Positions 6,728 to 37,503 of a DNA stretch of 64,000 nucleotides are shown piece after piece. Position numbers and translations under genes: made by a program. Numbering within the stretch: the stretch's first letter is position 1; the number at the start of each line of letters is the position of its first letter. Source of the DNA: Candidatus Chisholmbacteria bacterium RIFCSPHIGHO2_01_FULL_52_32. Its GTDB lineage: Bacteria > Patescibacteriota > Microgenomatia > UBA1400 > Chisholmbacteraceae. The DNA lies in assembly GCA_001816585.1 (NCBI GenBank), contig MHCJ01000003.1, forward strand, positions 650,681 to 714,680, read 5' to 3'. The notes beneath the pieces were generated by a model that was given only the letters and a program-made list of their open reading frames with translations, searched no databases and was not told the origin of the DNA.

Positions 6728-6730
6728 AGT

Positions 6731-7523: not shown

Positions 7524-7799
7524 ATGGAAACGAAGGTCTTAAACTACCGAATCATCATTGAGCCAGATAAGCAAACGGGAACGGGAAAACCTGGTTTTAC
7601 CGCTTTTTGTCCAACATTGGGAGTGGCCGATGATGGCGATACTGTCGAAGAGGCGATTCAGCATGTGCGGGGTGCCATGAAAGCATATGTTGAGAGTCTT
7701 ATTGCTGATAAACAACCCGTTCCTATTGATAGGCCAGAGCGGGACATTGTGACTACAACCCAAATCAATGTCAGGCGTAATTTTCAAATCGCTTCGTAA
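7524..7799 (+). CDS. hicB: HicB-family antitoxin (UPF0150)
   Basis: METKVLNYRIIIEPD...GFTAFCPTLG...GDTVEEAIQHVRGAMKAYVES is typical HicB. I chose the start at the internal Met (the track ORF begins at 7479). Confidence 0.75.
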   Translation: METKVLNYRIIIEPDKQTGTGKPGFTAFCPTLGVADDGDTVEEAIQHVRGAMKAYVESLIADKQPVPIDRPERDIVTTTQINVRRNFQIAS

Positions 7800-8020
7800 T
7801 GCCGAAACTGCCTCAAATCAAACCTCGTCAAATTGAAAAGGTTCTTATTCAATCCGGTTTCTCTCCTCGATCTACGAAAAGTGAACATGTCGTTTTCACC
7901 CATTCCGATGGTCGCCGTACTGTTGTGCCAGTTCACAACCGGCCTGTGCGGACCGGCACATTGCGTGCAATTCTTCGCCAAGCGAAGATTTCGGTTGATG
8001 AATTTCTTAAACTTCTATAA
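7799..8020 (+). CDS. hicA: HicA-family mRNA interferase toxin
   Basis: 73 aa, PKLPQIKPRQIEKVLIQSGF...GTLRAILRQAKISVDEF (YcfA/HicA family). Its ATG overlaps the hicB stop (TAATG). Confidence 0.8.
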   Translation: MPKLPQIKPRQIEKVLIQSGFSPRSTKSEHVVFTHSDGRRTVVPVHNRPVRTGTLRAILRQAKISVDEFLKLL

Positions 8021-9611: not shown

Positions 9612-10844
9612 TCACTGTTTGAAGAAATCTGCGGTGCGCTGCATGGCTTGGGTGAAGGTTGAGCCCGTGAGATTGTGACCGCCGGAGGGATACTCGAAAA
9701 GCTGGTGGGATATGTCGGTCCCGTTCAGGACGTCCATGAGATTCCGGCTGTAGCCGATTTCCACCACCGCATCATCCCGGGCGTGATGAACCTCAATTGC
9801 TCCCGTGACTCCGTCAAGATAATTGGTTGCGGGGACCTGCCTCCAAAATTCGCTTTCCGGGCTGAACTGCCCGTACAGGTTGAACAACTCGTCCCGCTTT
9901 CTCCTTCGTTCCGAATCCTGGGCTGGCGGTTGGTAACTTCGGTCCGAAATCCGAAACTGGGAAAAATCCTCGTAGGTGTAGACAGCGCCGGCCCAGATTA
10001 CCACTCTTTTGATTTCCGGCATGGCGACGAAACTGCGGAACACCACGTTGCCTGCCATGCTATGTCCCCAAAGTCCTATTCTGTCCGGGTCCACAAACTC
10101 TGCCTTCTTCAGTGCCGCGAAGGCGTTCAATGTATCGATGACGTAGTCCCCGGAATAATAGGAGCCCCCCGGTTCACCTTCCGATTGATCGTGACCTCGC
10201 AGGTCGATCTTGAAAACGACCAGTCCTTGGCGGGCGAGGAAGTCAACGTAGGAGGCGTAGTTGACCAGCGTCCGGTATTGACCGGGCGGGATATAGCCGT
10301 GGACGAAGACCACGGCCGGCCGGCCCCCTACCGGTGATTGACCTTTGGGGATGATGAGCTGTCCGTTGATACGAAAACCATCGGATTGGTAGCTCGTGAG
10401 GTAAGAAGTGTACGATTGGCTTTCCGAGACGAACCGGAGATCGGAAAGAGCGCTGTCGTATTGCCTGCCTCTCAAATACGGAAGGGTAAGTTCGCTGAAG
10501 GGAAATTGCGGGACTGCCGGAGCGGGTGCGGGATCGGCCGGGAGGTTGCCCTCTGCGGACTGAGGGTTTCCTTTCATTTGACCCGGAGATCCTTTGAAAA
10601 GTAATACGATGACGGTTGCGATGCCAACTGCCAGACTAATTCCGAGAATAGCCATCAACCAAATTTTCTTCTGATTGAGCGCGGGAATTCTCAATCTGTC
10701 CCGATCTTTCGACGGTTGGTAGGAGGGTTTCTGATCGCCGGCCATCCATCCAGTATATATCAGCGGCCGATCCGCCCTCCGCTTTGGAAAACTCATGGTA
10801 TACTGGTCTTTCTCATCGGGAAATAGCTTCCCCATAGAACTCAT
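9612..10844 (-). CDS. membrane-anchored alpha/beta-hydrolase (S9 / dienelactone-hydrolase-like)
   Basis: N-terminal TM, then a nucleophile elbow GHSMAG and C-terminal acid/His region (HHARDD). The start is uncertain; alternatives are M17 and M34. Confidence 0.75.
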   Translation of the reverse strand: MSSMGKLFPDEKDQYTMSFPKRRADRPLIYTGWMAGDQKPSYQPSKDRDRLRIPALNQKKIWLMAILGISLAVGIATVIVLLFKGSPGQMKGNPQSAEGNLPADPAPAPAVPQFPFSELTLPYLRGRQYDSALSDLRFVSESQSYTSYLTSYQSDGFRINGQLIIPKGQSPVGGRPAVVFVHGYIPPGQYRTLVNYASYVDFLARQGLVVFKIDLRGHDQSEGEPGGSYYSGDYVIDTLNAFAALKKAEFVDPDRIGLWGHSMAGNVVFRSFVAMPEIKRVVIWAGAVYTYEDFSQFRISDRSYQPPAQDSERRRKRDELFNLYGQFSPESEFWRQVPATNYLDGVTGAIEVHHARDDAVVEIGYSRNLMDVLNGTDISHQLFEYPSGGHNLTGSTFTQAMQRTADFFKQ

Positions 10845-23754: not shown

Positions 23755-24069
23755 ATACTGAGCCATGCGTTGCTGAAGAAGAGTTATTATACGTATCCCG
23801 ATCATAAAAACAACATACCAAATAACTAGATTCAACAAAAGATTTACAAAAGTAAATTTCAGTTCACATTGAGGAAGAAAATCGATATTCGGATGTTGCT
23901 GGACAAATTCATCTACTTCTCTTGAATATTTACATTCGTAACTAAGAAACTTCGGAGCTCCAACTTCTCCCACAAGATAGTAGAATTCGATTACATGGAT
24001 GGCAAGAAATATGACAAGAAATAGAAGCAGTTCGCGCTTGGTAGGTTTCAAGAATGCAATTGAGAGCAT
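23737..24069 (-). CDS. small hypothetical membrane protein (cassette ORF)
   Basis: 110 aa with 3 hydrophobic helices. Confidence 0.45.
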   Translation of the reverse strand: MLSIAFLKPTKRELLLFLVIFLAIHVIEFYYLVGEVGAPKFLSYECKYSREVDEFVQQHPNIDFLPQCELKFTFVNLLLNLVIWYVVFMIGIRIITLLQQRMAQYNHPRR

Positions 24070-24226
24070 AGCTGCCTGTCAAAAGATTTCCTCTATTCCC
24101 ACTGATAATATCACTTATACCACCTCCGCGGTGTTCAACACCAGGTTGGTCAACATTTTCGTTAACCTCGACATTCTCAAATTCTTAAGAAATTGAGAAT
24201 AAAGAAGAAAGATAAACTTGGGAGAC

Positions 24227-24363
24227 TGACAAGGTCACACGCATAGGCGTGTCCGGTGGTCAGCTTTAGTCGCAGCTCAGAACTGTATACACTATATTTT
24301 CAAACTTATTTCAATGAATCGATTCATTGAAATTGTACGGAATACTATTCGTTGCAGGTCGGA
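24227..24363. repeat. composite repeat, copy 2 (A-box + identical 98-nt unit)
   Basis: See 22791..22927. Confidence 0.9.
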
Positions 24364-24382
24364 CCTCTTCACGACAGCATAA

Positions 24383-24510
24383 TGACAAGCAGACATGCGA
24401 TCGCGTGTTTGGTGGTCAGATGGGCAGATGAGATGAGTTTAGTGGGTTGCAGGTCGCGGCGACAAGAAATTGAAGCGTTCAAGGATAAAATACCGAGGTG
24501 GCTTGGCTTG
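24383..24510. repeat. A-box variant (CATGCGATCGCGTG) followed by a full B-module (gggttgcaggtcgcggcgacaagaaattgaagcgttcaaggataaaataccgaggtggcttgg)
   Basis: The same A+B arrangement recurs at 27134-27262 and 28270-28375. Confidence 0.85.
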
Positions 24511-24844
24511 GATTACTCCCGGAGTTGTTCAGGTACTCAAGCTTTACCATTAGAATCCCGGTGTGGATCAACACGCTTTTCACTGAAAGCGCTTCCTTTT
24601 GACTCTCACCGGAGGCTTTGATAGACTTACTCAACAAATGAAGGAATCGAGAATGATGGGGAGAGAATTGGCTCGTTGATCCATCTAGCAACCGAGTCAG
24701 ACGGCATGTCAGACCGCGGTGCTCCACCCAACCCTGTATAGAGGGAAGGATTAGTCCAAACCTGCAATCAGCCGGGCGGAAAAATGGTTTACACCTCTTC
24801 TCTCACAGAAGAGGTTTTTTTTATGAAACAGAGGTGAAAAGAAG

Positions 24845-25861
24845 ATGAGTGAACAATTGAGAAGAACCGAGGGAAAATCAGACGAAGAAGGTTCTCCGAA
24901 ATACTACTGTGTCTTAGAGCTTGATCAGGAGAGTCCGCCACCGGAATCACTGGTGATTGGAAAAAGGGGGACACACGGTGAGGTATGGACTCCTGATATT
25001 GACTTACCCGGTCATTTAGGCCTCTTTAAAAGCACCATTGCAAAGAAGCAAATGGATATCAATTCTCTGAACAAAACAATAACATTGGGTGAGGAGGCCT
25101 TTGAAAGCACATATCATAACGGAAGACTGCTTGAGAGAGGAGAGCTGGTGCCGCTTCTGGACGGTGATATGGTGAACATCGGTGATATCCAACTTTTTAT
25201 TCACTTTGTTCCCTCAACCGGCACGGGCAAACCATTTTATCTCTACACAATATGTGATCGTATTCCTCTGTATAGCAAAAAGTCCGATATGCCGAAAACG
25301 CCCTGGAATCCGGAGGGGTATTCTCCACAGGAGACCATGGTTGTTGAACAACTTCAGAAAGAAGTACCGGTATGGCTGGTAAAAGAGGCGCAAAAAGATG
25401 CACGGACATGGGATCTGAAAGATATTGAACTGCTTACAAAATATCTAGAAGCAGAGAGACTCGAGCGGGAAACGGAATCCAAGCGAAATCCTTCAGATCT
25501 CCCTACCGGAGGTCTGGAACGGCACCGGCAGTTAATGGCAAAAATTGATGAACAACACCAAGAACAAAAAAAAGCATGGCTTACACATCAAATGGAGCGC
25601 AAACCCGTCTACTCGCCAACCAAAGAGGAAGGGATTTTTGCCGGAATATTCGGCTTTCTCGTGTCTGCTTGGTCGGCACGTGAATTTCCGTATTACCAAA
25701 CACCAAGTGGAGTTTATTTTTTTGAATGGACAGATGACGAGGGGAAAAATAAAAAAGTGATACAGCTTGATCTTGATGACATGATTGAAGCGGATAGTGT
25801 TCTATTCTTCTCCGCAGAATCCTGGTTAGAGCATGAACCGATAGACTTAAGAAAGCGGTAA
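24845..25861 (+). CDS. hypothetical protein with N-terminal FHA-like domain
   Basis: Residues ~35-125 (IGKRGTHG...YHNGRLLERGELVPLLDGDMVNIGDIQLFI) fit the FHA pattern. The C-terminal 200 aa are unknown. Confidence 0.45.
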   Translation: MSEQLRRTEGKSDEEGSPKYYCVLELDQESPPPESLVIGKRGTHGEVWTPDIDLPGHLGLFKSTIAKKQMDINSLNKTITLGEEAFESTYHNGRLLERGELVPLLDGDMVNIGDIQLFIHFVPSTGTGKPFYLYTICDRIPLYSKKSDMPKTPWNPEGYSPQETMVVEQLQKEVPVWLVKEAQKDARTWDLKDIELLTKYLEAERLERETESKRNPSDLPTGGLERHRQLMAKIDEQHQEQKKAWLTHQMERKPVYSPTKEEGIFAGIFGFLVSAWSAREFPYYQTPSGVYFFEWTDDEGKNKKVIQLDLDDMIEADSVLFFSAESWLEHEPIDLRKR

Positions 25862-25983
25862 TAATCTCCCGGACTGTTCCCCAGCCGAATCTTAAGAAAG
25901 GGTAACGGGTTGCAGGGCGTACCTGCATGAAGGATCGGAAAGACTCCGCGAGATTGGTTCGCTTCGGGAAGGAAAGAAGAAGA

Positions 25984-26238
25984 TTAGTTCTTATCCGTAA
26001 CTCCGGCGTTCTGGTCAAGTCGGTCGATTGTCTCCAGACACTTGGTTGAGAATTCGGCCAAACTGGTGATCAATTTTCTATTAGCTTTCGTATAGCCGCT
26101 TGAAGGATCGGAGAGCCGAGGCCACTCTTTCTTCAAGTTTTTTTGATAACTCAAAAGCATCTTTTTTAATTTTCGCCGCTCCTTTGGAGTCCGAAGGATA
26201 TATTCAAGTCGGTTCTTCAACTTATTATCTACCCTCAC
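25984..26238 (-). CDS. small hypothetical ORF
   Basis: 84-aa basic ORF in an otherwise empty interval. No motif. Confidence 0.25.
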   Translation of the reverse strand: MRVDNKLKNRLEYILRTPKERRKLKKMLLSYQKNLKKEWPRLSDPSSGYTKANRKLITSLAEFSTKCLETIDRLDQNAGVTDKN

Positions 26239-26370
26239 AGTTTGCAGTATACCAGATCTGGAGAGGCCTTCGGCTTAGACCTTCGGTTCGGCAACCTCTG
26301 GTTCTGAGAAGAGCCTCTGGCTCGGAGAGGAATGGCGTTGAGAGGTCGGGACTCTTGATAACAGAACGAG

Positions 26371-26407
26371 TGACAAGGTTGCACGTATATGCGTGTGCGG
26401 TGGTCAG
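26371..26407. repeat. A-box copy (tgacaaggttgCACGTATATGCGTGtgcggtggtcag) preceded by an E-module (gagaggtcgggactcttgataacagaacgag) that also precedes the 22791 copy
   Basis: Directly visible. Confidence 0.85.
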
Positions 26408-26408
26408 G

Positions 26409-27032
26409 TTACAGATGGAAGTATTCTTTGTATGCGTCTTCGTTTTCCAAGTACCCTATCGTCAGTAGCGTGACATTTTCGCCAATACCATAGAGTTCAC
26501 GGATAAAGTCAATTGCTTCGTTACACGGATAGGGAAAAAGATAGACGCTCTTCTGGAGTTGTAAAAATCCAAGTCGTTTTAAGGTGTCTCGCATGGCGTC
26601 TCTGGCTCGATTTTTTCCTTTTGGCACATCGTAGGAAACGATCCGCCATCTTTTATCCCAGGAAGATGGTGTCGGTATTGTCAGATCGCTAATCTTGTAT
26701 TGAAGGAGTCTTTTCCTGCCTTTTTCCGTAATTTGAACCGCATATCTTTCCCCGATCCTATATATCCTGATTAGCTTCTTTTTCCGCATCTCTAAGAGTC
26801 GTCGGCGCAATCGCCGCTGATCAAACTGCTCCCATTCCTCTTCTTCAGGATACTCCTGTTTTTCAAAGCGATACCCCCGTAACAGTATCGGCAGACCGGG
26901 CATGATAAGGCTCCCGGCAATGAACGCACCAATCCCTGCAATCATGAGGATCTGTTTTGCGACCGGATAGGTTTTGCTGATCTTTTTCTTGCCCTTCTTC
27001 TCCGACATGCTTTGTGTCCTGGTTTTGTCCAC
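26409..27032 (-). CDS. membrane-anchored PaaX-C-like (Cas2-fold) domain protein
   Basis: N-terminal TM, then W-RIVSYDVPKGKNRARDAMRDTLKRLGFLQLQKSVYLFPYP matching the PaaX C-terminal domain pattern. Confidence 0.55.
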   Translation of the reverse strand: MDKTRTQSMSEKKGKKKISKTYPVAKQILMIAGIGAFIAGSLIMPGLPILLRGYRFEKQEYPEEEEWEQFDQRRLRRRLLEMRKKKLIRIYRIGERYAVQITEKGRKRLLQYKISDLTIPTPSSWDKRWRIVSYDVPKGKNRARDAMRDTLKRLGFLQLQKSVYLFPYPCNEAIDFIRELYGIGENVTLLTIGYLENEDAYKEYFHL

Positions 27033-27054
27033 TGTAGCTTAATATTTGAAGAGT

Positions 27055-27262
27055 GACAAGGTTACACGCATATGCGTGTCCGGTGGTCAGTAGTTCATGG
27101 CGGGGGGAAAATGCGTTGGGCAGGAAAATGGAGTGACAAGCGGGCACGCATATGCGTGTGCGGTGGTCAGTGAAAGTCAGGTTAGGTGGGCAAATGAGGT
27201 GGGGTTGCAGGGTGTACCTGCAAGAAATTAAAGTCTTCAAGGATAAAATGCCTGGGTGGCTT
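27055..27262. repeat. A-box, 41-nt linker (tagttcatggcggggggaaaatgcgttgggcaggaaaatggagt), A-box, B-module
   Basis: The same A-linker-A architecture with a similar linker occurs at 28057-28172. Confidence 0.85.
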
Positions 27263-27649
27263 GGCTACCCGTCCGTCCTTCCCTCGTAGCATCAGCGGAG
27301 CGACTCGTCAGGCGGATCCCATCGAACGGTAGGTCGAGAGTAAATCGCTCCGGAATGGAGAAGTAATGTGATAAACTACCAGGCATTATTCTGGATTAAA
27401 ATATCCTGAGAGAAATCTTGTATGAGCCAAGAAGACGGTGTCTTGCTCAGTGGGCAGTATCCGGAGAGGCGTTTGGAGGATGGCAGAGTCATTCCCAGCT
27501 GGCTGGTGGTACTGTACTGGAAGGATCGATTTTTAGGATAGGGAACATCCGGGAAAAGACCACACGTCTACAACATTGATCCCTCAGACTTTCACAAGAG
27601 CCTAAGTTTTGAGTGGGGACCATACAGTTCGATTGCAGCCTCCGCTCAT

Positions 27650-27949
27650 ATGCACTTGGCCAAAGAATATGGTTCGGACTTAGGACCTACGGTGACTCCC
27701 CAAGAAATAATCAAAGGTAATACATTAGGTGATAACGGCGAAGAACTGGAATTGGATCAGATCCTGGAAAAGTTCGCTCTGCAAGGAATGGATCCGGAGA
27801 CCGACTCGCACTTTGGTTTTATTACAATGGCGAGGCCATCAACTGAGGAAGAACTACAGCGTAAGAATGAATGGATACAGGAAAGGTTTGAGGAGAGTAT
27901 CGAGAGACAGAAGCGGATCTGCGAAGAAGCCGGTTTTCCTTTCGATTAG
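27650..27949 (+). CDS. small hypothetical acidic protein (cassette ORF)
   Basis: 99-aa ORF with no motif. Confidence 0.35.
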   Translation: MHLAKEYGSDLGPTVTPQEIIKGNTLGDNGEELELDQILEKFALQGMDPETDSHFGFITMARPSTEEELQRKNEWIQERFEESIERQKRICEEAGFPFD

Positions 27950-28056
27950 CTGATACAAAGAATGCCCCCTTTGGACGCTCGACATCTTCGAAGAGAACTC
28001 GAAGCGATATTTGCTTAACGCTTATCAGAAGTCGGGATGTCTCATTATTGGATAAT

Positions 28057-28375
28057 TGACAAGGTCGCACGCATATGCGTGTTTGGTGGTCAGGTGGTCA
28101 TGGCGGAGGGAAATGAGGCGGGCAGGAAAATGAGGTGACATACAGACACGCGATCGCGTGGGCGGTGGTCAGAATTGGTTACAGGCCGGATCTATAAGGA
28201 AAAAACCACTCACGAGGTTAAAAACTCCCTAGGTGGCTTGAGAATTGCACCTCCCAGGTGGAAGACTAGTGACAAACAGACACGCGATCGCGTGTTTGGT
28301 GGTCAGTGTGAGTCAGATTAGGTGGGCAGTTGAGGTAGGGTTGCAGGGCGTAGCTGCAAGAAAAGCCGCCACCTG
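28057..28375. repeat. dense repeat block: A, linker, A, partial B, C, A, B
   Basis: Three A-boxes (28057-28093, 28136-28172, 28270-28306), a C-module at 28236-28260 and a B hairpin ttgcagggcgtagctgcaa at ~28343. Confidence 0.85.
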
Positions 28376-28424
28376 CCGATAAAAGCAGTTTTTTCCAAAA
28401 ACTGCTATCGCGGGCAGGTTTGAG

Positions 28425-28448
28425 TAAATCACCTCCGGGGTGGTTAAA
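28425..28448. repeat. D-module (taaatcacctccggggtggttaaata) at the stop of 28444..28680
   Basis: Copy of the 23734-23754 module. Confidence 0.8.
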
Positions 28449-28680
28449 TACTTGTCTTGATTTTTCCGTGAAGCTTTCTATCGGTTTCGGTATTGATCAC
28501 TGCTGCCAACTCTGCTTCATCCTGGTATTTTTCCGGTGTAACGGAAAACCAGCAGTTATCATCACCAGGCTTATAGTTCACTCTCAATTCGTGTTCATCA
28601 GCACCCTCGATATCCAATGCGATACTCTGATCTACCAATGCTCTGACCTTTTTGAAGTCCATATTTTCACCGCCTTTCAA
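28444..28680 (-). CDS. small hypothetical protein (cassette ORF)
   Basis: 78 aa, acidic. No motif. Confidence 0.35.
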   Translation of the reverse strand: MKGGENMDFKKVRALVDQSIALDIEGADEHELRVNYKPGDDNCWFSVTPEKYQDEAELAAVINTETDRKLHGKIKTSI

Positions 28681-28709
28681 GGATCGAACGTTGATAATTG
28701 TAAGATATT

Positions 28710-28925
28710 CTATTCGAACCGATTCCCTCTCGCTTCGGTATCCTCTCCTTCATCCTGAATGCCAGTATCAAGTCCAATGAATCTATTGTTAAAGAACTTG
28801 TTACCTTTTCCTCTGTTCAGAATCCCGATGCGTTTCGTTCTTTCGATCGGATTTTCGCTCGGATTCGATCGCCCAACATTGACATGTAAATGTGGTTCGA
28901 CTTTGACATTATTGATGTCGCCCAT
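28710..28925 (-). CDS. small hypothetical protein (cassette ORF)
   Basis: 71-aa ORF. Confidence 0.3.
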   Translation of the reverse strand: MGDINNVKVEPHLHVNVGRSNPSENPIERTKRIGILNRGKGNKFFNNRFIGLDTGIQDEGEDTEARGNRFE

Positions 28926-28940
28926 GATCCACCTCCTTCC

Positions 28941-29171
28941 TTAAAGTGTGGTTGTCGTCGATGAATTGTAAATGCTGGTTCCAGATGCGGTGGTAGTTGT
29001 CAAAGTAAAAACATCCCATCGTTCAACTGTTCGCTGTGGTTCAGCCGGAAGGTCATGATGTACACGACAATAGCCTTTTGTGCAGGCAAGATACGGTGAT
29101 GCCAAGCTGGCGCAAATGCAGATGGCAAACCCAGCCTTCTTAGCGTAATCAAGCCATTCAATGTCGTTCAT
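28941..29171 (-). CDS. small Cys-rich hypothetical protein (cassette ORF)
   Basis: 76 aa with a CICAS...C..YC..HH cluster and a Thr-rich tail. Confidence 0.3.
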   Translation of the reverse strand: MNDIEWLDYAKKAGFAICICASLASPYLACTKGYCRVHHDLPAEPQRTVERWDVFTLTTTTASGTSIYNSSTTTTL

Positions 29172-29481
29172 GTTGCCCTATCTCCTATGTTTCCGTCCGT
29201 GCTTCTGACTGAGAGCACTTCCGGCAACGGATTTGGTCCTTCGAGTAGTACGCCTGCTCCTCAAAAGTGAGGATGCTTTTCGAGCTACCCTCCTACTGGT
29301 TACCTTTGGATGCGCCATGGTTGTTCGCCTCCCTTCATTAGCACTCGATAATATTGACTGACAATATAGAACGAAAAAAAATGCTTGTAAAGCAGAAAAA
29401 TGCCCGAAGCAATATCAAGGTGGTGGACGTTCGTGCTCCTACCTCAAGGAACTGGCTGCCGCAGGCCTGGGGTGCTTAGAG

Positions 29482-29503
29482 TAATCCACCTCCGGGGTGG
29501 TTA
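29482..29503. repeat. D-module (taatccacctccggggtggttaat) at the stop of 29508..30479
   Basis: Third copy of the D-module. Confidence 0.8.
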
Positions 29504-29507
29504 ATTG

Positions 29508-30479
29508 TTATTCATATTTTTCATTCCAGCGATCAGTCAAAGCTGTGTACGTGTATGCATCAGCTACTAAGTTTGCGTATGTCTCATCATTATTGTAGGT
29601 TTTTGCAATCTTAATGACTTCGTTCCTACGTTCATCGCTAATCCACTCTCCATAAACACGCTGATTGGCGAAATACTCCTTTACGGCTAAGTCTACCGAT
29701 TTTTTATCATTCAGGGGCTTGGTTGAAGTGACTTGCATTATGCCATAAGTTCCTCGTCGGATAATGAGGGATTTGATTCTTTCTAAAAACCTGAACCATT
29801 TTGGTCGCTGGATATTTTCGACAATAGCAACGGCAAGAACGATAGCTTTGTCAGCGTGAAATTGTCTACTCTTTATCTCAATTTCGTCAATTAGGTTGTC
29901 ATCAATTGTTGCAAGCGACCGTTGAAATATCTCTGCTGGATGTTGATCGCGATTTTCGTAAGTCTTGTAAATTAATACAGCTAGACCAGCTCCTACAAAA
30001 GAAGACCATATGTTATCAACAAGTCCCTGCCATGTCGGGAAAAATGAGCCTACATACTTTGAATTTGACGCCCACCCGCTGAAGAATCCAGTAATAGGTA
30101 TGGATAAAATCGAAAAGATATGCACTAAATACTGGGAATATACATTAAAAAATCGTTTCAATCTCCCAGAGCGAATAATTAATTGTAAGAGAGCTCTACC
30201 ATTATGTAATAGGGTATGAAGTGAACCTATAGTAATTCCAACGATGAGATGTTGATTTATTGATAACTTGCTCCCAAACATTGAGATGGCTAAATTTATC
30301 GCAATAAATATTGGGATCATTCGAAAGGAGACGAACCGGAGTGGAGAAATGCTAATAAAAAGACTTGTGAAGTCTGATGTGCCGAAGTAAATATCTGGCC
30401 ATCTGTTTTTGAATATCCAGTAAAATATTTCTATAAAAAACAATCCAGCACTGATAACGATCAAGACATCGGGAATCAT
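29508..30479 (-). CDS. polytopic membrane protein with C-terminal lytic-transglycosylase (SLT)-like domain
   Basis: About 6 TM helices, then AIVLAVAIVEN...RGTYGIMQV resembling the SLT catalytic Glu and GLMQ motifs. Confidence 0.5.
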   Translation of the reverse strand: MIPDVLIVISAGLFFIEIFYWIFKNRWPDIYFGTSDFTSLFISISPLRFVSFRMIPIFIAINLAISMFGSKLSINQHLIVGITIGSLHTLLHNGRALLQLIIRSGRLKRFFNVYSQYLVHIFSILSIPITGFFSGWASNSKYVGSFFPTWQGLVDNIWSSFVGAGLAVLIYKTYENRDQHPAEIFQRSLATIDDNLIDEIEIKSRQFHADKAIVLAVAIVENIQRPKWFRFLERIKSLIIRRGTYGIMQVTSTKPLNDKKSVDLAVKEYFANQRVYGEWISDERRNEVIKIAKTYNNDETYANLVADAYTYTALTDRWNEKYE

Positions 30480-30592
30480 AAGAATGATGTGCCAACCTTA
30501 TACTAGCATCAAAAAGTGAACTCTATCGCCGAAAAAATCCGCCCTTGCGAGTCTCAAATAATCTCTATGGCACAGCTTAGTATTAGATTGTT

Positions 30593-32494
30593 TCATCCGG
30601 CCAATATCTTATGAATTCTGTGGGCATATTTATCAATTAACTGGGCCCTTTCAAAATTAATGGCTTCAGGAATATTGCTCTGAGGATATGTTGTTCTTCC
30701 GGTTTCAACTTTCTTTCGAGCAATTTCTCTACAAACAACATCAGTTACTAGCTCACCGATTAATACTCGTGCATATCTTTCGTTTTGATTCTCCCCATAA
30801 GGACCTATGTACATTTTTACTGAAGGTGCTTGCGTCGCAACAGTGATTATTCCGCTAGCTCTATCAAACATAACCCTGTACCGAGGATCTTCTTTGGGGC
30901 TGTATGTAATATCTTTAAAGAGACCTTTATTCTTTGGAAGTCCATCCACAATATCCGTCGGTTCTTTCGGTTTTGAACGAACTTCTATTAGGCACTCTGC
31001 TTTGAGTTCTCCAAATCTGGCGGTAAGCAAACCGAGGGCCCCTACTTGTCTGCCTTCAACTTTTACAGTCTCTGATGCAACATTACCAATTACATCAGAC
31101 TTTTGAAATTGAACTTTTGGCGTATGGACGATGAGCTCTTCTGAATCACTTTGGATTAATATCTCTTTATTGAATGGTATCGTATGGGGAACTAAGGCCC
31201 TAAGAGTAATGCTCTTAATCTTTCCGCTTACTACGGTTGTTATTGGTGGCAGGAAGGCAAAACCATTTTCTGGAATTTCCGGCTGCCTATGTAGGTCCTC
31301 ATCTAATCCAGTATCGCTTACCTCATCTCCAAGTTCCTCTTTTGTAATCTCACCAAGATCCTTCAATAATTTTTTAAATCGTTCTTTGGTTTCTCTTGTT
31401 TCAATATCCCTTTCTTCCTCCTTTCTTCTCATTTTTTCTTCTTTAATAATCGGTTCAAGAATTTCTTCAACGGCCAACTTTAATGATTTTATAAATGGAT
31501 GTTTGTTATTAAGCTCATCTCTTTTATCAGATATCACCTCCTCGCCTGAATTTAATAAGGTGTAAATATATTCGCATGTTACTTGACCAAATAGTCTTTC
31601 TGCTTCAGGGGAACTATCATATTTAAACAGTGTGATATCGTGTATGGCCTTACCATCTGATATTAATAACCCATTCTCTCTGTATGGACCCGCCTCCTCC
31701 CTCCCGCTCAGCGGCAATTCAGATCGATTGATTTCGATAGTAGCGTCGATTCTTTGACCTTTATAGTTAATAAAAAAAGAAGCTTGATATATCTTTTTTC
31801 CTCTTGGTGTTTTGTAGGAAATTTGAACTGGTTCACGCTTTTTATCTCCTTTATCTGATCGCTCAATAAGCTGCACAATCCTGTTTGGATCTTGGAGAAT
31901 GTTTCTCAGACTAAAATACTTCTGTAGTTGTTCTTTTAATCTCTCGAATTGAGGTGTTTTAATTTCTTCTCTGGTAGTTTTAAGTGTTACCTCCGTCCCG
32001 CAATCATAGATTCCTAGTCTACCCTTGTGTGTTGCCTTGACGGTTACAGGTGATTTTGAGTCATAATAAGCTTTATCATCAACATCGCATTCATATAGAT
32101 AGCCGTTTTTTACTGATCTAACTCTTCCATAACCAACGCCTACCATAGCTTCCTTCAATCCTCTTCCATAGTAACCTCTTACTATAGTCGGTGATTCACG
32201 GCCGCTCGTTTCTCCTCCATAACGGCCGATCTTTTCATCCATCTGCTGTCTATCAAAGCCTTCAGCTTGATCGACAACTCGAAAAGTAGATCCTATTCTT
32301 TTTCTTACAATTTCAATATGAATTAATCCTGATGTTTTCGAGTCGCTTTTTTCTATTCGACTATAGCTATCATCAGAATTTGTTATAAGTTCCACAAGAG
32401 CATATACGGGAGAATCTCCAACAAGTTGCTTCGCATTCTGAATTAATACTCTCGTCTCGATGTGTATTGGCCTTCTCTTTGTGTCCATAATCAA
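30593..32494 (-). CDS. MORC-like GHKL (Bergerat-fold) ATPase with a charged coiled-coil linker and an unknown ~200-aa C-terminal domain
   Basis: N-box ELITNSDDS, G1-like VVDQAEGFD, G2 GYYGRGLKEA (the G-x-Y-G-x-G-L-K pattern seen in MORC/MutL-type HATPase_c_3). Third gene of an operon with 4-nt overlaps. Confidence 0.65.
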   Translation of the reverse strand: MIMDTKRRPIHIETRVLIQNAKQLVGDSPVYALVELITNSDDSYSRIEKSDSKTSGLIHIEIVRKRIGSTFRVVDQAEGFDRQQMDEKIGRYGGETSGRESPTIVRGYYGRGLKEAMVGVGYGRVRSVKNGYLYECDVDDKAYYDSKSPVTVKATHKGRLGIYDCGTEVTLKTTREEIKTPQFERLKEQLQKYFSLRNILQDPNRIVQLIERSDKGDKKREPVQISYKTPRGKKIYQASFFINYKGQRIDATIEINRSELPLSGREEAGPYRENGLLISDGKAIHDITLFKYDSSPEAERLFGQVTCEYIYTLLNSGEEVISDKRDELNNKHPFIKSLKLAVEEILEPIIKEEKMRRKEEERDIETRETKERFKKLLKDLGEITKEELGDEVSDTGLDEDLHRQPEIPENGFAFLPPITTVVSGKIKSITLRALVPHTIPFNKEILIQSDSEELIVHTPKVQFQKSDVIGNVASETVKVEGRQVGALGLLTARFGELKAECLIEVRSKPKEPTDIVDGLPKNKGLFKDITYSPKEDPRYRVMFDRASGIITVATQAPSVKMYIGPYGENQNERYARVLIGELVTDVVCREIARKKVETGRTTYPQSNIPEAINFERAQLIDKYAHRIHKILAG

Positions 32495-33147
32495 TCCCTT
32501 CTTTTAAGCATCCCCCCGCGTTTTCCTACAAATAGCTCTTCTTTGAAATTTTCCTCACAAAAGTGAAGTAAATTCATAATGTCGTCTCTGCCATATAGCT
32601 CTACATACTGCTTAATTTCAATAAGATTGTCTTTTTTGGTAAGAGGTAGGCTATCCGGTGTACAAAAAATTAATTCATAGAAATCTAATGGCTGAATTTG
32701 ATCTCGTTTCCCAACTTTGTACAAATGGTAAGCCTTACTTTTCTCTATTCTCTTTACGAATATTCCTGCTCTTGTTCTCTCGTCTCCTTTACGTCTAACA
32801 ATAACCACATCTCCTGAAGAAGGGGCTAATTTGTTGTGTATTCTCTCTGCAGCTCTGGTACCAAGAGGTGTGATATTAAATCCCCGAGAAGTACTACCGG
32901 TAATATAATGCTTGTCAGTTCTACATCGGAGCCACGTTTTATTGACTAGGGATGAATCTGGCCACTCTGGGTGTCCGATCAGATGGAATCTAGATGGAAA
33001 AAGTGTAAAAACTTTCTCGACCAGATTCTCAAATGTCGGATTCTTATTCGTTTTAAGCAAGGAAAAAAGTGCGTACGTTACCAATTCGTCATACGAAATT
33101 TTCATGTAAACATCAGGTTCATAAAGCTCACGAGGTTTTGAGATCAT
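32491..33147 (-). CDS. hypothetical protein (middle gene of the GHKL operon)
   Basis: 218-aa ORF whose ATGA overlaps both neighbours (translational coupling). No recognisable motif. Confidence 0.5.
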   Translation of the reverse strand: MISKPRELYEPDVYMKISYDELVTYALFSLLKTNKNPTFENLVEKVFTLFPSRFHLIGHPEWPDSSLVNKTWLRCRTDKHYITGSTSRGFNITPLGTRAAERIHNKLAPSSGDVVIVRRKGDERTRAGIFVKRIEKSKAYHLYKVGKRDQIQPLDFYELIFCTPDSLPLTKKDNLIEIKQYVELYGRDDIMNLLHFCEENFKEELFVGKRGGMLKRRD

Positions 33148-33359
33148 AACCTAAATTCCTTCTTCTTTTTCTTAATAAAACGAGCCTTCGTCATCTTAAG
33201 TTGGGAATCGATTGCGTAGAAGATCTTATTGATCTCTTCATCGGAGTAATCGTAATTTGCTCTGTTGGAGAGATTTCCGAGAATTCGAAGTTTCTCGAGG
33301 ACGATATTTGTTCTTTGTACTGCCAGGCGTTTAAATCTATCTTGTCGTGTTTCTGTCAT
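33144..33359 (-). CDS. small basic protein, possible DNA-binding regulator (first gene of the GHKL operon)
   Basis: 71 aa with a predicted helical core RFKRLAVQRTNIVLEKLRILGNLSN and a K-rich tail. Confidence 0.4.
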   Translation of the reverse strand: MTETRQDRFKRLAVQRTNIVLEKLRILGNLSNRANYDYSDEEINKIFYAIDSQLKMTKARFIKKKKKEFRL

Positions 33360-33681
33360 AGGAACATTATCAATTGTGTATAAACAGCGCTATTATACCA
33401 TATATGGTATCATTTGTAAATATCTAATATTAGAAAATGATAATCTAATATTGCCTGATCTGTATATAAACCTTCACTTGAGATAAATAAAAACTGCCCT
33501 TCCGGGCAGCATTTGATTGTGTTCCTAAATATCCTAGTTCTCAAGTGCTCTTCAAGATATGAACTTTCGCTGATGCTATATCTCAGAGTTAGACACTATT
33601 ACCAGATAATCTGATAGTTTTGTTATTGACACTTTCGTAAAACTTTCATATAGTTTAACCGTTACCTTACAGTTCGTCATT

Positions 33682-35094
33682 ATGCTTACACCTAAACAAA
33701 AGAAAGTACTAGATTTCATAACATCTTTTATCAAGACAAATGACTATTCTCCATCATTAGAAGAAGTCGCGAAGAATTTTAAACTCAAGTCTGTTTCGAG
33801 TGCGCATCAATTTGTTGATGCCCTCCATAAGAAGGGATATTTAAAAAAAATAGAGAATCAACAGCGCTCAATTGAACTAATAATTGGATTGGTAGAGATC
33901 CCTTTATTTGGTTATATTTCCGCTGGTGAGCCTATTGAGGCTATTTCGAATCCAGAACCCATAAAAGTACCTCACAAGATGCTCTCGAAGAGTGGTCTTC
34001 ATTATGCACTAAAAGTTAAAGGCGATAGTATGGTTGATGAAGGAATAAATGACGGAGCTACAGTCATAATTCGAAGACAAGAGACGGCTACGAACGGCCA
34101 AAAGGTAGTCGCTCTTATAAACGGAAATGAAGCGACGCTCAAGAAGATTTATAAAGAGAAGAAAGGTTTTAGACTCCAGCCAGCAAATTCCAGCATGAAG
34201 CCAATTTTCGTAAAAGATTTAATAATTCAAGGAAAAGTGATAGGGGTACTACCAAACTATGAAGATACAACTAGACCTACGGGGAAAATAGCTCAAACCA
34301 AAATTCCTACAAAATTTGCTTTAGACAGGATTATTTCTGGTGATGTTTTAGAGGTAATGTCTCAAATTCCTGATAATAGCATTCATCTAGCTATAACTTC
34401 CCCGCCCTATAATGTGGGTAAAGATTATGACAACCATAATGATCGTATGAATTATCAAGAATATTTAGAATGGCTTGAGAAAGTGTGGAGAGAAACAAAA
34501 AGGGTACTTGTACCAGGGGGAAGGTTTGCACTAAATATTGCTCCGACAGGAATCAAAGATTTCGTACCTATTCACCACGATTTCGCAAATCAATTGCGTA
34601 AAATAGACATGAAATTTAGAACAGAGATTATTTGGTACAAACAAACAATGCTTAAACGTACTGCCTGGGGAAGCTTTAAAAGCCCAGCGAATCCTCATAT
34701 AGTACCATCGTGGGAATATGTATTAGTTTTCTCAAAAGACAAAGACAGGCTGGATGGAGATCAGAAAAACTCTGACATAACAAAGCAAGAGTTTATGGAT
34801 TTCTCTGATGGATATTGGAAAATACAGCCTGAGACAAAACGAAATGGACACCCGGCACCTTTTCCCGAGGAATTAATTTACCGCCTCATAAAATTCTATT
34901 CTTATAAAGGAAATACTATTTTAGATATGTTTGGTGGAACTGGAACAGTTGCAGTAGTGTCCCACAAGACTAAAAGACGTTTTATACATATAGACATTTC
35001 AGAAGAATACAACAGGGTAGCACAAAAACGCTTGGATGCCATCAAAAACCCCCCACAACTTTTTGGAGAGAATTCCTACCGGTTTGCTGCCTAA
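33682..35094 (+). CDS. fusion: LexA repressor (wHTH + S24 autopeptidase) plus beta-class N4/N6 DNA methyltransferase (SPPY, m4C-type)
   Basis: Residues 1-~200 align to E. coli LexA along their length: LTPKQKKVLDFI, the cleavage-site SAGEP, Ser nucleophile GDSM, Lys in ATLKKIYK, and PANSSMKPIFV. Residues ~215-470 carry MTase motif IV TSPPYN followed by motif I FGGTGT. It is a single uninterrupted ORF. Confidence 0.8.
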   Translation: MLTPKQKKVLDFITSFIKTNDYSPSLEEVAKNFKLKSVSSAHQFVDALHKKGYLKKIENQQRSIELIIGLVEIPLFGYISAGEPIEAISNPEPIKVPHKMLSKSGLHYALKVKGDSMVDEGINDGATVIIRRQETATNGQKVVALINGNEATLKKIYKEKKGFRLQPANSSMKPIFVKDLIIQGKVIGVLPNYEDTTRPTGKIAQTKIPTKFALDRIISGDVLEVMSQIPDNSIHLAITSPPYNVGKDYDNHNDRMNYQEYLEWLEKVWRETKRVLVPGGRFALNIAPTGIKDFVPIHHDFANQLRKIDMKFRTEIIWYKQTMLKRTAWGSFKSPANPHIVPSWEYVLVFSKDKDRLDGDQKNSDITKQEFMDFSDGYWKIQPETKRNGHPAPFPEELIYRLIKFYSYKGNTILDMFGGTGTVAVVSHKTKRRFIHIDISEEYNRVAQKRLDAIKNPPQLFGENSYRFAA

Positions 35095-35124
35095 ATACTC
35101 AAAGCGGTTCGAAAAACTATAGAA

Positions 35125-35940
35125 TTAGCCAAATAATGTTTTACCTTCAAGCACCCCTTCATCAATTGGCTCATCAGTAAAATTGGGAACAACCTCTTGT
35201 CTCCAGATCCTTAGGTCGGAAAAAAGCGGTTTTCCTCCGTCAGTCCTGGAAAAATCCAGTTTTTTAACTTGGGAACATTCAGTAGTACTTGGGTGTGTTG
35301 AAAAAACGCGATCCAAATAAGCTTCCGACTTTTTTCGTAAGCTACTTGCTTCATTATCGCCTTTGACGAACTTCTTATCCAAATCTTGAGTTACCAAGCA
35401 ATATTTGATGTTGTTATTTCGAAGTGCTAAAGCCCAGAACAAAACAGCATCGTTTCTGGCATGGTCACTTGTCTTACAGTTTAAAAGCGCAAATACTTTG
35501 AGTCTACCGCCTTGTTCTTTTGATAGCACAACTATATCGGAGTCTGGCCACACGCCGGTGGTTGTTTGAACGCAGCGTCGTCTAGCATCTAAAGTTAAAA
35601 ATCGCACAATTTCCTGGGCTCGTGGCTTTTTTCTGAGATGATCTCCTTTTACGGCCACTATCCCTTCGTTGTTCAAGTTTTCATTTATGATATTTCTAAT
35701 GAATATTTCAAAATTATTTCCACTGGCTGCTACCCAACTCTGCCTTGCCTGGTTTAAATTTCCTCTGCCTTTTTCCTGATAGAGTCTAATGTAAATTTTC
35801 TGAGTAGTCTCCATGACCTTTCTTTCAGGAACTTCCTCCAATTGAACAGTGTTCAAGATCCTCCCTACATCATTAATGGGTTTATTCCCAAAGCTCTGCA
35901 AATCCCGTTTTGCTTTTTGATAAATTATTTCGAAATCCAT
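35125..35940 (-). CDS. putative type II restriction endonuclease (convergent partner of the MTase)
   Basis: 271 aa with a PD...(D/E)xK-like stretch (WPDSDIVVLSKE). The position convergent to a methyltransferase fits a restriction enzyme. The motif assignment is weak. Confidence 0.45.
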   Translation of the reverse strand: MDFEIIYQKAKRDLQSFGNKPINDVGRILNTVQLEEVPERKVMETTQKIYIRLYQEKGRGNLNQARQSWVAASGNNFEIFIRNIINENLNNEGIVAVKGDHLRKKPRAQEIVRFLTLDARRRCVQTTTGVWPDSDIVVLSKEQGGRLKVFALLNCKTSDHARNDAVLFWALALRNNNIKYCLVTQDLDKKFVKGDNEASSLRKKSEAYLDRVFSTHPSTTECSQVKKLDFSRTDGGKPLFSDLRIWRQEVVPNFTDEPIDEGVLEGKTLFG

Positions 35941-36110
35941 AAAATATTGATTGTGAGTGTACTAATACTAATAGTTTAACACAAACACCAGACTAAAACT
36001 CCGTCCGTATAGATTACCTCGCCGTAATAGCTATTGCAGGTCCAGCATGCAAAAGTATGAAAGGTGTTTACGGGATGTCAAGTGTAGTTTAGCGAGCTTA
36101 AGGGGATTTA

Positions 36111-36168
36111 GGGGCTCCCAGTGAGATAGGCAAGCCATCTCACGGGATCAGAGAGAAGTTAGGGGAGG
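36111..36168. ncRNA. conserved ~55-nt hairpin element, copy 1 (family also at 39260-39313 and 56730-56786)
   Basis: ggggctcccaGTGAGATaggcaagccATCTCACgggatcagagagaagttagggg. Copies differ by compensatory stem changes (GTGAGAT/ATCTCAC versus GTGGGAT/ATCCCAC). Confidence 0.5.
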
Positions 36169-36614
36169 ATCAGCTCCCCTTGCATCCCCGGCCAGAGGCC
36201 TTCGGTCTTTTCAAGCCTGATACGGACAAGGCAAGTGTTGTTTTTAAGATTTGGAAGAGGAGGCAAGACTTGGCCGGGGAACTCCCCGTCTTTGCCGGAA
36301 AGAAGGATTTTCACCTGCGCTCCTTCCGCAAAGTTTCCGATTTCGCTCCAGGGAACCTCAAACTCAAAGTGAAGCGTAGCAAAGTCAAGGATCGCGAATC
36401 CGTACGACCCGGGAGTGATGTAGAGCCCCGGCCGCAAGCCGTCATCCGAAACCACGATTCCCTCAACCGGAGAGGCTAAGGATGTCTGGTCCATCCGGTA
36501 TTTTGCCAGCTCGACTGCCTTGACCGCCGGAGCCTCGGCGAAGGCGGGCCTCGCCCTTCCGTCCTGTCCCTCGTAGCCCCGCCTTCCACCTGGGAGGTGG
36601 AATAGCCTTGACAC
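36159..36614 (-). pseudogene. 5'-truncated fragment of an RND/HlyD-family periplasmic adaptor gene
   Basis: Encodes only the C-terminal beta-barrel/MP-proximal part (EGIVVSDDGLRPGLYITPGSYGFAILD...VRIRLEKTEGLWPGMQGELI). The coiled-coil N-terminal half is absent, and the missing side abuts ccgacctgcag repeats at 36690 and 36790. Confidence 0.5.
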
Positions 36615-36839: not shown

Positions 36840-37319
36840 CTATCGATGCTTTTCTACCCATTCCCAGAATTCTTTTGGGGAAAAAACAAGGAGGGGCTTG
36901 AGAGCCTTCCTTACCCGATCTGTGAGGATATGGCCTTTATCAAGAGAAAGAAGGAAATGAGCTCCGGATAGTACAGCCCCTGCAAGAATGGGAGCATCGT
37001 CCGGATCTACGATCACACTATGGAACTTCTTTATGATGTGTCGAGGGGCATCAGAGATCACACGGATCACTTTCTTCTTCAGAAGTGCTTCAAGCTTGTC
37101 CGGATCGACACCCAATTTGTGAAGATGTTTTGTAACTTCTTCAATAACAAATGGGGTGGTGAACAACCGAAGTTTCCCCTTTGCTCCGGCAGAGAGAATT
37201 TTTCTTGAGCCACCACTGGGAGAGGCAAGAGCTGAAAGGATGACCGAGGAATCAAGGAAGACGGTTAATGATTGCCTCAATGCGCTTCTGCTGTTTTTCC
37301 GTGAGTTGATCATCGGCAA
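36840..37319 (-). CDS. vapC: PIN-domain ribonuclease toxin (VapC)
   Basis: VFLDSSVILSAL and downstream conserved acidic residues. The start is uncertain because the track ORF overlaps the antitoxin by 68 nt. Confidence 0.75.
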   Translation of the reverse strand: MPMINSRKNSRSALRQSLTVFLDSSVILSALASPSGGSRKILSAGAKGKLRLFTTPFVIEEVTKHLHKLGVDPDKLEALLKKKVIRVISDAPRHIIKKFHSVIVDPDDAPILAGAVLSGAHFLLSLDKGHILTDRVRKALKPLLVFSPKEFWEWVEKHR

Positions 37320-37503
37320 TCCACTGCTTCATCTCTCGCAGGGAGAACGACCGCAATTTCTGTTGTTGCCGTTTCACCGGTTTAATCTCCGCAAGCGGGC
37401 GAGAGCGGTAAAACAAGAGTAACGATTTTCCTTCCTCCATCGCAGACCTCAGCTTGGAGAAATCTTCACGGAGTTCCTTGGTGGAAATGGTTTGAATCTT
37501 CAT
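37252..37503 (-). CDS. vapB: antitoxin of the VapBC pair
   Basis: 83 aa; the TISTKELRE...SLLLFYRSRPLAEIKPV N-terminus resembles a Phd/YefM antitoxin. It lies immediately upstream of the PIN gene. Confidence 0.65.
   Translation of the reverse strand: MKIQTISTKELREDFSKLRSAMEEGKSLLLFYRSRPLAEIKPVKRQQQKLRSFSLREMKQWIADDQLTEKQQKRIEAIINRLP

Follow-up and report, generated by a model that had tools for sequence, protein, structure and literature searches.

Here, we describe a compact two-to-three-gene cassette from Candidatus Chisholmbacteria bacterium RIFCSPHIGHO2_01_FULL_52_32 (assembly GCA_001816585.1, contig MHCJ01000003.1). Its core is a paraMORC-like ATPase of the GHKL superfamily together with a translationally coupled winged-helix adaptor of 218 amino acids (aa), and in this subclade a basic protein of 71 aa is encoded first. 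The analysis covers a stretch of 64,000 nucleotides (nt), positions 650,681 to 714,680 of the forward strand, called the window in the following; the locus examined lies at window positions 30593-35940 (Table 1). The best explanation, which we hold with moderate confidence, is an autonomous, nuclease-free defence or conflict module, where the winged-helix adaptor would recruit an ATP-driven DNA clamp. The cassette is horizontally mobile and has landed in a variable defence-gene slot beside a unit that consists of a LexA-methyltransferase fusion (LexA::MTase) and a restriction endonuclease (REase). L-numbers denote loci or contigs of relatives, P-numbers denote protein representatives.

The original prediction placed five open reading frames (ORFs) in this locus, three of which were taken as one operon ending in a MORC-like GHKL ATPase. 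All five are recovered at these coordinates by an ORF listing, and the operon with its MORC-like GHKL ATPase at the end is supported. Of the two ATGA start/stop overlaps described at the same time, the one between the 71-aa and the 218-aa genes is a true ATGA at 33147-33144, while the one placed at 32491-32494 had to be given up: the junction of the 218-aa and the ATPase genes reads GAT TGA TT ATG and holds no ATGA. The ATPase starts either with TTG at 32494 (TTGA overlap) or, more likely, with ATG at 32488, 2 nt past the stop codon of the 218-aa gene. Public gene calls (P0001, 100% identical) use the ATG, which yields a product of 631 aa. The genes of the operon are tightly packed and coupled whichever start holds.

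Between the operon and the LexA::MTase gene, a divergent promoter region of 322 nt had been proposed, and it indeed holds two divergent promoter matches. They are the top two matches of the region; the operon promoter is also the best one on the minus strand within 30400-36200. TTGACA...TATAAT-type promoters are located directly upstream of the 71-aa gene in eight other loci. A terminator-like hairpin (fold -15.2 kcal/mol, z = -2.2) is located within the variable slot, where it separates the two promoters and delimits the cassette transcription unit on its outer side, and an analogous hairpin was found upstream of the cassette promoter in L032. The operon thus appears to be autonomous, as it has a strong promoter of its own and a hairpin upstream. 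The palindrome ATACCATATATGGTAT, which overlaps the -10 element, occurs once in the window, and 9 of 100 shuffled sequences gave at least one match at no more than three mismatches. Other loci carry different palindromes at the same promoter position. In AT-rich DNA, this is weak evidence and only suggestive of an autoregulatory operator.

The Bergerat ATP-binding fold predicted for the N-terminus of the ATPase is confirmed by motifs as well as by structure. The motifs ELITNSDDS and GYYGRGLK are present, all 37 aligned homologues keep E33, N37, D73, G77, G110 and K112 unchanged, and motifs I-IV of the GHKL superfamily (ExxxNxxD, DxGxG-like, GxxGxG, and a conserved T/GT) were all identified. 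The match to the Pfam model HATPase_c_3 is just sub-threshold (23.9 bits at a cutoff of 25). For none of the three families (ATPase, 218-aa and 71-aa) did sequence or profile searches against the PDB rise above chance. The AlphaFold model derived from the 37-member alignment is confident, with a predicted local distance difference test (pLDDT) of 86, and its best structural matches are MORC3, SMCHD1 and MORC2: 281-304 residues superpose on their ATPase modules, at a sequence identity of merely 13-15%. The family-specific profiles, domains and partners of MutL, Hsp90, topoisomerase VI-B and GyrB were not found for the protein, which hence does not fall into one of the housekeeping families (MutL, topoisomerase VI-B, Hsp90) that would have spoken against its placement. 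R323 is invariant, in agreement with the basic residue of the S5 transducer in the MORC architecture, and is a candidate for its basic finger.

Within the MORC-like proteins, a closer assignment is possible via the signatures given by Iyer, Abhiman and Aravind 2008 (PMC2292703), who predicted that MORC and paraMORC ATPases work in conflict systems of prokaryotes. GhXhhpXXRhl, the S5 motif specific to MORC, is absent. The corresponding hairpin reads G273-[LIF]-L-[IV]-x-x-x-x-A281-[IV]-H, with position 281 occupied by A in 31, S in three and T in three of the 37 sequences, and by R in none (0/37). The same paper separates paraMORC2 by ExxxH in S5, paraMORC3 by a C-terminal nuclease of the restriction endonuclease (RE) fold, paraMORC4 by a TIR domain, and paraMORC5 by a C-terminal HxH; none of these signatures (for the RE fold E-D-ExK) was found in the ATPase. 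It is therefore paraMORC-like and belongs to paraMORC1 or a further family, paraMORC2-5 being set apart by their described signatures. Judged from its conserved residues, the MORC-like ATPase is predicted to be enzymatically intact.

The C-terminal part of the ATPase matches no named family, just as the original prediction had it. R538 and E579 are invariant in its C-terminal domain, which probably serves constitutive dimerisation or the binding of a partner. The ATPase belongs to a small family: a word-indexed set of 5.8 billion proteins contains 40 clusters of it, and a set of 1.84 billion proteins contains 867 representatives at E <= 1e-30. Two size classes of 620-660 and 725-770 aa can be distinguished. 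Members of the longer class (P0212, P0220-P0224, and others) carry an insertion of ~100 residues directly after the Ig-like domain, at profile position ~503; they stem from KSB1, Acidobacteriota, LCP-89, Bacteroidota and Aminicenantes loci and have retained the 218-aa partner.

The 218-aa protein had been described as lacking any recognisable domain. This holds with respect to named families, since both the 71-aa and the 218-aa proteins yield zero matches in Pfam, NCBIfam, PADLOC and PHROGs; it does not hold with respect to the fold, as a winged helix was found, followed by an orphan all-helical domain. In L007, the 218-aa homologue is split into a winged-helix ORF (6388-7083) and a C-terminal-domain ORF (7287-7940), both carrying a long low-complexity extension rich in K, P, A and Q. 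Either a frameshift in an expanded linker or a true split of the gene could explain this. The 71-aa protein is basic as predicted (isoelectric point 10.2) and helical, and is strongly conserved, with 16 invariant positions in nine homologues, with the conserved motif RFKRLAxxRTNxVLxKLRxLGNxSNxxxYxY...KIF...EFKL. No family or solved structure matches it above chance. Its gene is located only upstream of the 218-aa gene, in 9 of the ~30 clade-A loci introduced below, and is an accessory part of the operon outside the core.

The strict pairing of ATPase and winged-helix protein becomes apparent from the distribution of the family. Gene-neighbourhood look-ups and a scan of one genome per species yielded 183 relatives, of which 80 loci were kept; these define clade A, with ~30 non-redundant loci including the window, and clade B with 50 loci. 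In 30 out of 30 clade-A loci, the 218-aa gene is located directly upstream of the ATPase gene on the same strand (median gap -2 nt). Except for this gene and the 71-aa gene (9/30), clade A has no conserved neighbour. Thus, conservation of the whole triplet, which had been put forward as a check, was found for the pair and for a minority of loci only in case of the 71-aa gene. Hosts of clade A belong to ~15 phyla, from Patescibacteria to Gammaproteobacteria, and include Nitrospirota, Chloroflexota, Acidobacteriota, Ignavibacteria, Spirochaetes, KSB1, Bacteroidota, Zixibacteria, Aminicenantes, Cloacimonadota, Kryptoniota, and others.

The flanks of clade-A cassettes are heterogeneous. We observe a Type IIG enzyme in L035, a Type III MTase in L030, an SNF2/DrmD-like helicase in L053, an MTase-HNH gene in L008, VapBC/PIN modules immediately upstream in L019, L031 and L042, AlbA_2-HATPase_c_4 and NYN genes in L001, and integrase, resolvase and HSDR_N genes in L004. 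Helicase and nuclease genes are sporadic, and the conserved operonic link known from the MORC family is missing. Some flanks gave PADLOC matches to mad2, mad3 and mad8; these are generic cross-matches of MTases or ABC-ATPases, and a link to MADS was dismissed.

Mobility of the cassette is indicated by the low guanine-plus-cytosine (GC) content of the island (38% in a genome of 52%), by the spread of its hosts over ~15 phyla, and by an insertion in L008. In L008, a two-gene copy of ~2.7 kb (216-aa and 619-aa products) precisely interrupts an N6_N4 MTase-HNH ORF. A 13-bp target duplication, CATATAGATTGTT, flanks the insert, which also contains a 16-nt repeat, TTTATTCAACAAAATC, close to either end; without the insert, the MTase ORF is restored and reads ...EKWLTKAYRLLKDDGRF... 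The duplication is significant, as none of 200 shuffles reached the same. The right end of the insert supplies an ATG that restarts the C-terminal MTase fragment, and the MTase may survive as two polypeptides. From this precise insertion with its duplication, it follows that the pair of 218-aa protein and ATPase moves as a unit, via a mechanism encoded outside the cassette. A general mobile-element signature was considered and rejected, because significant scars are restricted to L008; no repeats bracket the copy in the window.

A selfish or addictive element would fit some of these observations. In this case, the small or the winged-helix protein would neutralise a toxic ATPase in the manner of a toxin-antitoxin (TA) pair, or the cassette would be cargo of a non-autonomous mobile element, and it would be maintained through post-segregational effects. 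The compact, translationally coupled module with its small first gene, the L008 insertion with duplication and 16-nt terminal repeats, and the frequent VapBC neighbours are compatible with such an element. However, the cassette contains no recombinase or transposase, and insertion scars occur in one of 28 loci only. Addiction modules are usually common on plasmids and phages, whereas tblastn found the cassette in none of 72,556 plasmids and 50,697 phages, with only four remote matches in IMG/VR. Moreover, we know of no precedent for an ATPase toxin of 630 aa. We therefore regard a selfish element as unlikely.

The neighbouring restriction-modification (R-M) genes were identified by their domains. 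The 470-aa ORF comprises LexA_DNA_bind (PF01726, 5e-15), Peptidase_S24 (PF00717, 3.7e-29) and N6_N4_Mtase (2.9e-46), and matches PADLOC MTase_II at 1.7e-75. Its N-terminal 200 aa score 170.5 bits with TIGR00498 (cutoff 110.95), with both the LexA winged helix and the S24 peptidase present. The proposed fusion of a LexA helix-turn-helix, an S24 peptidase and an N6_N4 MTase in one ORF is thus supported by Pfam and TIGR00498, and the convergent 271-aa ORF, proposed as an endonuclease, turned out to be a BsaWI-type REase (PF18643, RE_BsaWI, 7e-10). With an MTase and a presumably cognate endonuclease side by side, the two genes are classified, from their domain matches, as a putative Type II R-M system. 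The fusion itself is common: more than 120 clusters at 63-98% identity, named 'repressor LexA' by their sources, are found in Microgenomates, Gottesmanbacteria, Levybacteria, Roizmanbacteria and Shapirobacteria. A convergent BsaWI-like gene that overlaps LexA::MTase follows it in each of three relatives (98%, 83% and 75% identity), and the pair is kept in L094-L097; in L097, it is located between recA-recX and the ribosomal-protein/rpoA cluster. The LexA of this lineage appears to be permanently fused to an R-M methyltransferase.

The direct repeat GAAAGT-N5-GAAAGT, a single perfect copy across the window, is kept in or beside the LexA::MTase promoter of three relatives including L095 and L097 (in L097 in a different orientation), and is probably the operator of the fusion protein. 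That LexA might also control the operon was considered and rejected: the repeat occurs at the MTase promoter only and is absent from the operon promoter. The LexA::MTase-REase pair is a conserved, lineage-wide unit of Microgenomates that marks a hotspot of defence genes, which corrects the picture of the neighbours; no paper on this unit was found.

The slot upstream of LexA::MTase differs between relatives. In the window and in L094, a near-identical strain, it is occupied by the MORC-like cassette; L095 and L096 carry an ATPase-Toprim gene of the OLD/GajA type there, together with two other genes (PADLOC Old, 1.8e-39), and L097 has small hypothetical genes. In the set of L095 (3-4355) and L096 (2-4117), a 527/554-aa gene lacking annotation and a 364-aa gene, the latter with weak protease/LmuA-like matches, flank the OLD/GajA-type gene; the set may constitute a further OLD-family system that is uncharacterised. 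The window and L095 share DNA homology from 33618 onward, 8 nt before the MTase's own -35 element. Over 24001-35009, window and L094 share 99.86% identity; ~85 nt ahead of the MTase stop, the two part abruptly (L094, 11328 onward), and L094 has a BsaWI-like gene of only 187 aa and then a different 552-aa ORF. This suggests that the endonuclease side of the R-M pair has recently been replaced or has decayed.

These observations bear on the original prediction of a single five-gene, DNA-targeting defence module, with the GHKL protein as an ATP-dependent effector or sensor of the R-M pair. The genes are adjacent and share a low GC content (0.32-0.40 across 30.6-35.9 kb, 38% for the island, versus ~0.52 on both sides and in the genome), the cassettes of L008, L030 and L035 also abut MTases or R-M enzymes, and MORC/paraMORC ATPases are frequent in R-M operons (PMC2292703). 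Nevertheless, LexA::MTase and RE_BsaWI are present at 75-98% identity in relatives without the operon, where an OLD-type system or small hypothetical genes take its place. The R-M pair has its own promoter with a hairpin in between, its operator-like repeat is absent from the operon promoter, and its homology to the relatives starts just before this promoter. The cassette, in turn, is found in ~30 other loci, and an N6_N4 MTase flanks it in only two of them (2 of 94 flank genes), other R-M-type genes in a few more. Since the R-M pair occurs without the operon, the promoters are separate and the homology starts at 33618, the five genes constitute two independent units; the single module is largely refuted and we consider it hardly tenable. 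The expected association with R-M genes is found insofar as some cassettes adjoin them, but not as a conserved partnership. The link is positional and reflects a defence-island neighbourhood.

For the same reason of vicinity to immune genes, a Cap-like controller deserves mention, in which a GHKL-type kinase modifies a winged-helix repressor and thereby switches on an adjacent defence operon, as CapK/CapS do. CapK/CapS are likewise found beside R-M and other systems (PMC13373217), and here, too, GHKL and winged helix-turn-helix proteins are co-encoded beside immune genes. The domain content does not agree with this, and the analogy was rejected on these grounds: CapK is a GHKL protein of the anti-sigma-kinase type with HTH and STAS domains and CapS carries STAS, whereas neither operon protein has a STAS match, and the ATPase, with its S5 transducer, falls into a group with MORC, SMCHD1 and MutL, apart from the kinases. 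A conserved downstream operon is also missing. We consider such a controller very improbable.

Several observations weigh against a role in defence, and they are collected here. None of the three operon proteins contains a nuclease, TIR, protease or pore effector domain, and no effector domain is fused in the best 150 relatives of the ATPase. At E <= 0.1, none of the three products (71, 218 and 633 aa) matches a profile of PADLOC-DB v2.0.0. Plain housekeeping genes flank many clade-A cassettes, and a search for flanking direct repeats in 28 cassettes with shuffle controls was significant for L008 alone (1/28). Clade B (Arthrobacter, Pseudarthrobacter, Marinobacter, Negativicutes, and others) has no homologue of the 218-aa or 71-aa protein by iterative hidden Markov model searches; its members reside among Usp, PAS, MFS and redox genes without a defence signal, which suggests a non-defence role for this clade. 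As clade B lacks both the adaptor and a defence signal, the ATPase itself need not be an immunity protein.

The main rival is accordingly a non-immune module for DNA organisation, silencing or stress, in which a sequence-specific winged-helix protein recruits the MORC/Hsp90-like ATPase so as to regulate or compact host or island DNA, and which was acquired horizontally and serves the host or the maintenance of the island. Silencing by eukaryotic MORCs relies on their recruitment through DNA-binding adaptors, an effector domain is missing from the cassette, and stand-alone clade-B genes are syntenic in conserved non-defence neighbourhoods over many Arthrobacter and Pseudarthrobacter genomes (e.g., L038, L041, L054, L075, L078, L087, L088). 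On the other hand, clade A is patchy over the phyla, is found in islands and hotspots beside R-M, TA and recombinase genes, and has no conserved host-gene neighbour that might be a regulatory target. We take the non-immune role as possible, though on the doubtful side.

The defence module remains our preferred reading. The case for a defence role is circumstantial and is made up of the hotspot position with an OLD/GajA-type system in the same slot of L095/L096, of the R-M, TA and recombinase genes beside other cassettes, and of a PIN/Phd pair 1 kb away in the window. The operon structure, folds, conserved catalytic residues, strict pairing and patchy spread across phyla are observed. We infer that the proteins form a complex, clamp DNA and act against phages or plasmids, as follows. 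The ATPase would be a constitutive dimer via its C-terminal domain or the coiled coil. The winged helix of the 218-aa protein would bind DNA and its helical C-terminal domain the ATPase. Upon ATP binding, the two GHKL heads would close into a clamp on DNA, as in MORC, SMCHD1 and MutL, and the clamp might trap or compact invading DNA, block its replication or transcription, or signal to an unlinked effector, so that phage or plasmid propagation would be limited without a nuclease of its own. The 71-aa protein may act as an accessory subunit, or as an autoregulator at the palindrome over the -10 element.

MORC and paraMORC ATPases in prokaryotic conflict systems are already known, while a minimal module of adaptor and MORC-like ATPase without helicase or nuclease is undescribed as far as we found. 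The gene combination, put forward in the original prediction as apparently undescribed, is indeed absent from PADLOC, NCBIfam, Pfam, PHROGs and the publications found, and we found no account of a MORC-like ATPase that has a winged-helix adaptor, with or without a small basic protein, as its sole conserved partner and lacks both nuclease and helicase. If the cassette protects against phages or plasmids, it would represent a new defence system of only 2.7 kb, as well as a tractable bacterial model for a DNA-binding adaptor that recruits a MORC-type clamp, the central open question of eukaryotic MORC silencing. More speculatively, clade A as a whole might be a nuclease-free immunity or silencing system, with an adaptor that loads a MORC-like clamp to entrap or compact invading DNA: a bacterial counterpart, and possible evolutionary antecedent, of adaptor-guided transposon silencing by eukaryotic MORCs. 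In this view, giant viruses have captured full-length relatives of the clade-A ATPase. This extended proposal we consider rather doubtful.

Table 1. Features of the cassette and its neighbourhood, in window positions except for the last row.
Feature	Position	Strand	Description
71-aa gene	33359..33144	minus	ORF listing
218-aa gene	33147..32491	minus	ORF listing
218-aa protein, winged helix	33093..32830	minus	residues 19-106
218-aa protein, C-terminal domain	32772..32533	minus	residues 126-205; orphan, all-helical
ATPase gene	32494..30593	minus	633 aa if the start is TTG
ATPase, GHKL-S5 module	32488..31499	minus	residues 1-330; Bergerat GHKL domain and S5-fold transducer, MORC/SMCHD1-like
ATPase, coiled coil	31498..31316	minus	residues 331-391; long antiparallel hairpin (model helices H331-362, H365-386)
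ATPase, Ig-like domain	31261..30974	minus	residues 410-505; beta-sandwich
ATPase, C-terminal domain	30913..30593	minus	residues 526-631 and stop; three short strands and two long helices
Operon promoter	33420..33392	minus	TTTACA-17 nt-TATAAT with extended TG; 11/12 consensus positions
Palindrome	33395..33410		perfect, 16 bp; overlaps operon -10; candidate autoregulatory operator
Hairpin	33493..33510	minus	GC-rich, followed by T-run; terminator-like on the minus strand; between the divergent promoters
MTase promoter	33626-33654	plus	promoter match
Direct repeat GAAAGT-N5-GAAAGT	33631-33647		operator-like; inside MTase promoter
LexA::MTase gene	33682..35094	plus	470 aa
BsaWI-like REase gene	35940..35125	minus	271 aa; convergent to LexA::MTase
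R-M neighbour unit	33618..35940		LexA::MTase, its promoter and operator-like repeat, REase; outside the cassette module
L008 insertion ends	7278-7352 and 9954-9986		contig shared with L037

Further features were observed in the surroundings of the cassette. Directly downstream of the ATPase gene (29508-30479), a 323-aa protein with a hydrophobic N-terminal half and no family match is encoded, and this gene is conserved solely in L094. In the low-GC variable region at 26409-27032, a 207-aa protein combines an N-terminal hydrophobic segment with a PaaX_M/Cas2-like domain (2.2e-19). Dispersed repeats of ~95-130 nt with 78-82% identity are located left of the cassette (~24380-24469, 27043-27227, and 28046-28363), as detected by secondary BLAST matches of the window against L094. 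On the other side, at 36840-37503 and 1 kb past the REase gene, an 83-aa gene with weak similarity to Phd/YefM shares an overlap with the gene of a PIN-domain toxin (159 aa; PIN_3, 1.8e-12).

Compared with known systems, the ATPase resembles MORC and SMCHD1 in its GHKL-S5 module with all four ATP-binding motifs and in a coiled coil after or alongside this module; further likenesses would be that ATP drives dimerisation of the heads on DNA and that a separate DNA-binding protein recruits the ATPase. It differs from them in that it lacks the Arg of the MORC motif, a CW domain, a hinge or another reader domain, and carries an Ig-like and a novel helical C-terminal domain instead. For prokaryotic MORCs, an operonic link to a superfamily II (SFII) helicase and/or an R-M nuclease is typical, in ~70% of neighbourhoods (PMC2292703); this link is not conserved for the cassette. 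With paraMORC1-5 of the same paper, the ATPase shares the MORC-like GHKL and S5 domains without the MORC motif, a sporadic, laterally mobile distribution and the vicinity of R-M genes. Its distinct C-terminal extension past S5, as described for paraMORC1, and an MTase-HNH neighbour in one locus (L008) would be compatible with paraMORC1. In contrast to those paraMORCs, its only conserved partner is a winged-helix protein, with or without the 71-aa protein, which that paper does not describe.

Among defence systems, Shedu of the VcSduA type, a fusion of GHKL and a DUF4263 nuclease that was shown to defend (PMC12137116), is similar in its N-terminal GHKL ATPase, which is proposed to control the defence activity, and in the predicted dimeric clamp. 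Unlike Shedu, the ATPase carries no fused PD-(D/E)xK nuclease, and the PADLOC Shedu models give no match. Wadjet/JetABCD and MukBEF-like SMC-kleisin complexes differ as well: the ATPase is of the GHKL and not the ABC/SMC type, there is neither a KITE subunit nor a Toprim nuclease, and the similarity of the winged helix is generic. Phage rIIA shares the N-terminal GHKL module, with weak matches (template modelling score ~0.3) essentially confined to it. Resemblance over the full length is found in giant viruses of the Klosneuvirus group, which encode uncharacterised structural relatives of the ATPase (loci L090-L093). In BFVD, Foldseek matches A0A1V0SGC9 (Hokovirus) and A0A5K0UA26 (Yasminevirus) with E-values of 3.5e-30 and 1.5e-28, over ~730-770 aligned columns at 16-17% identity.

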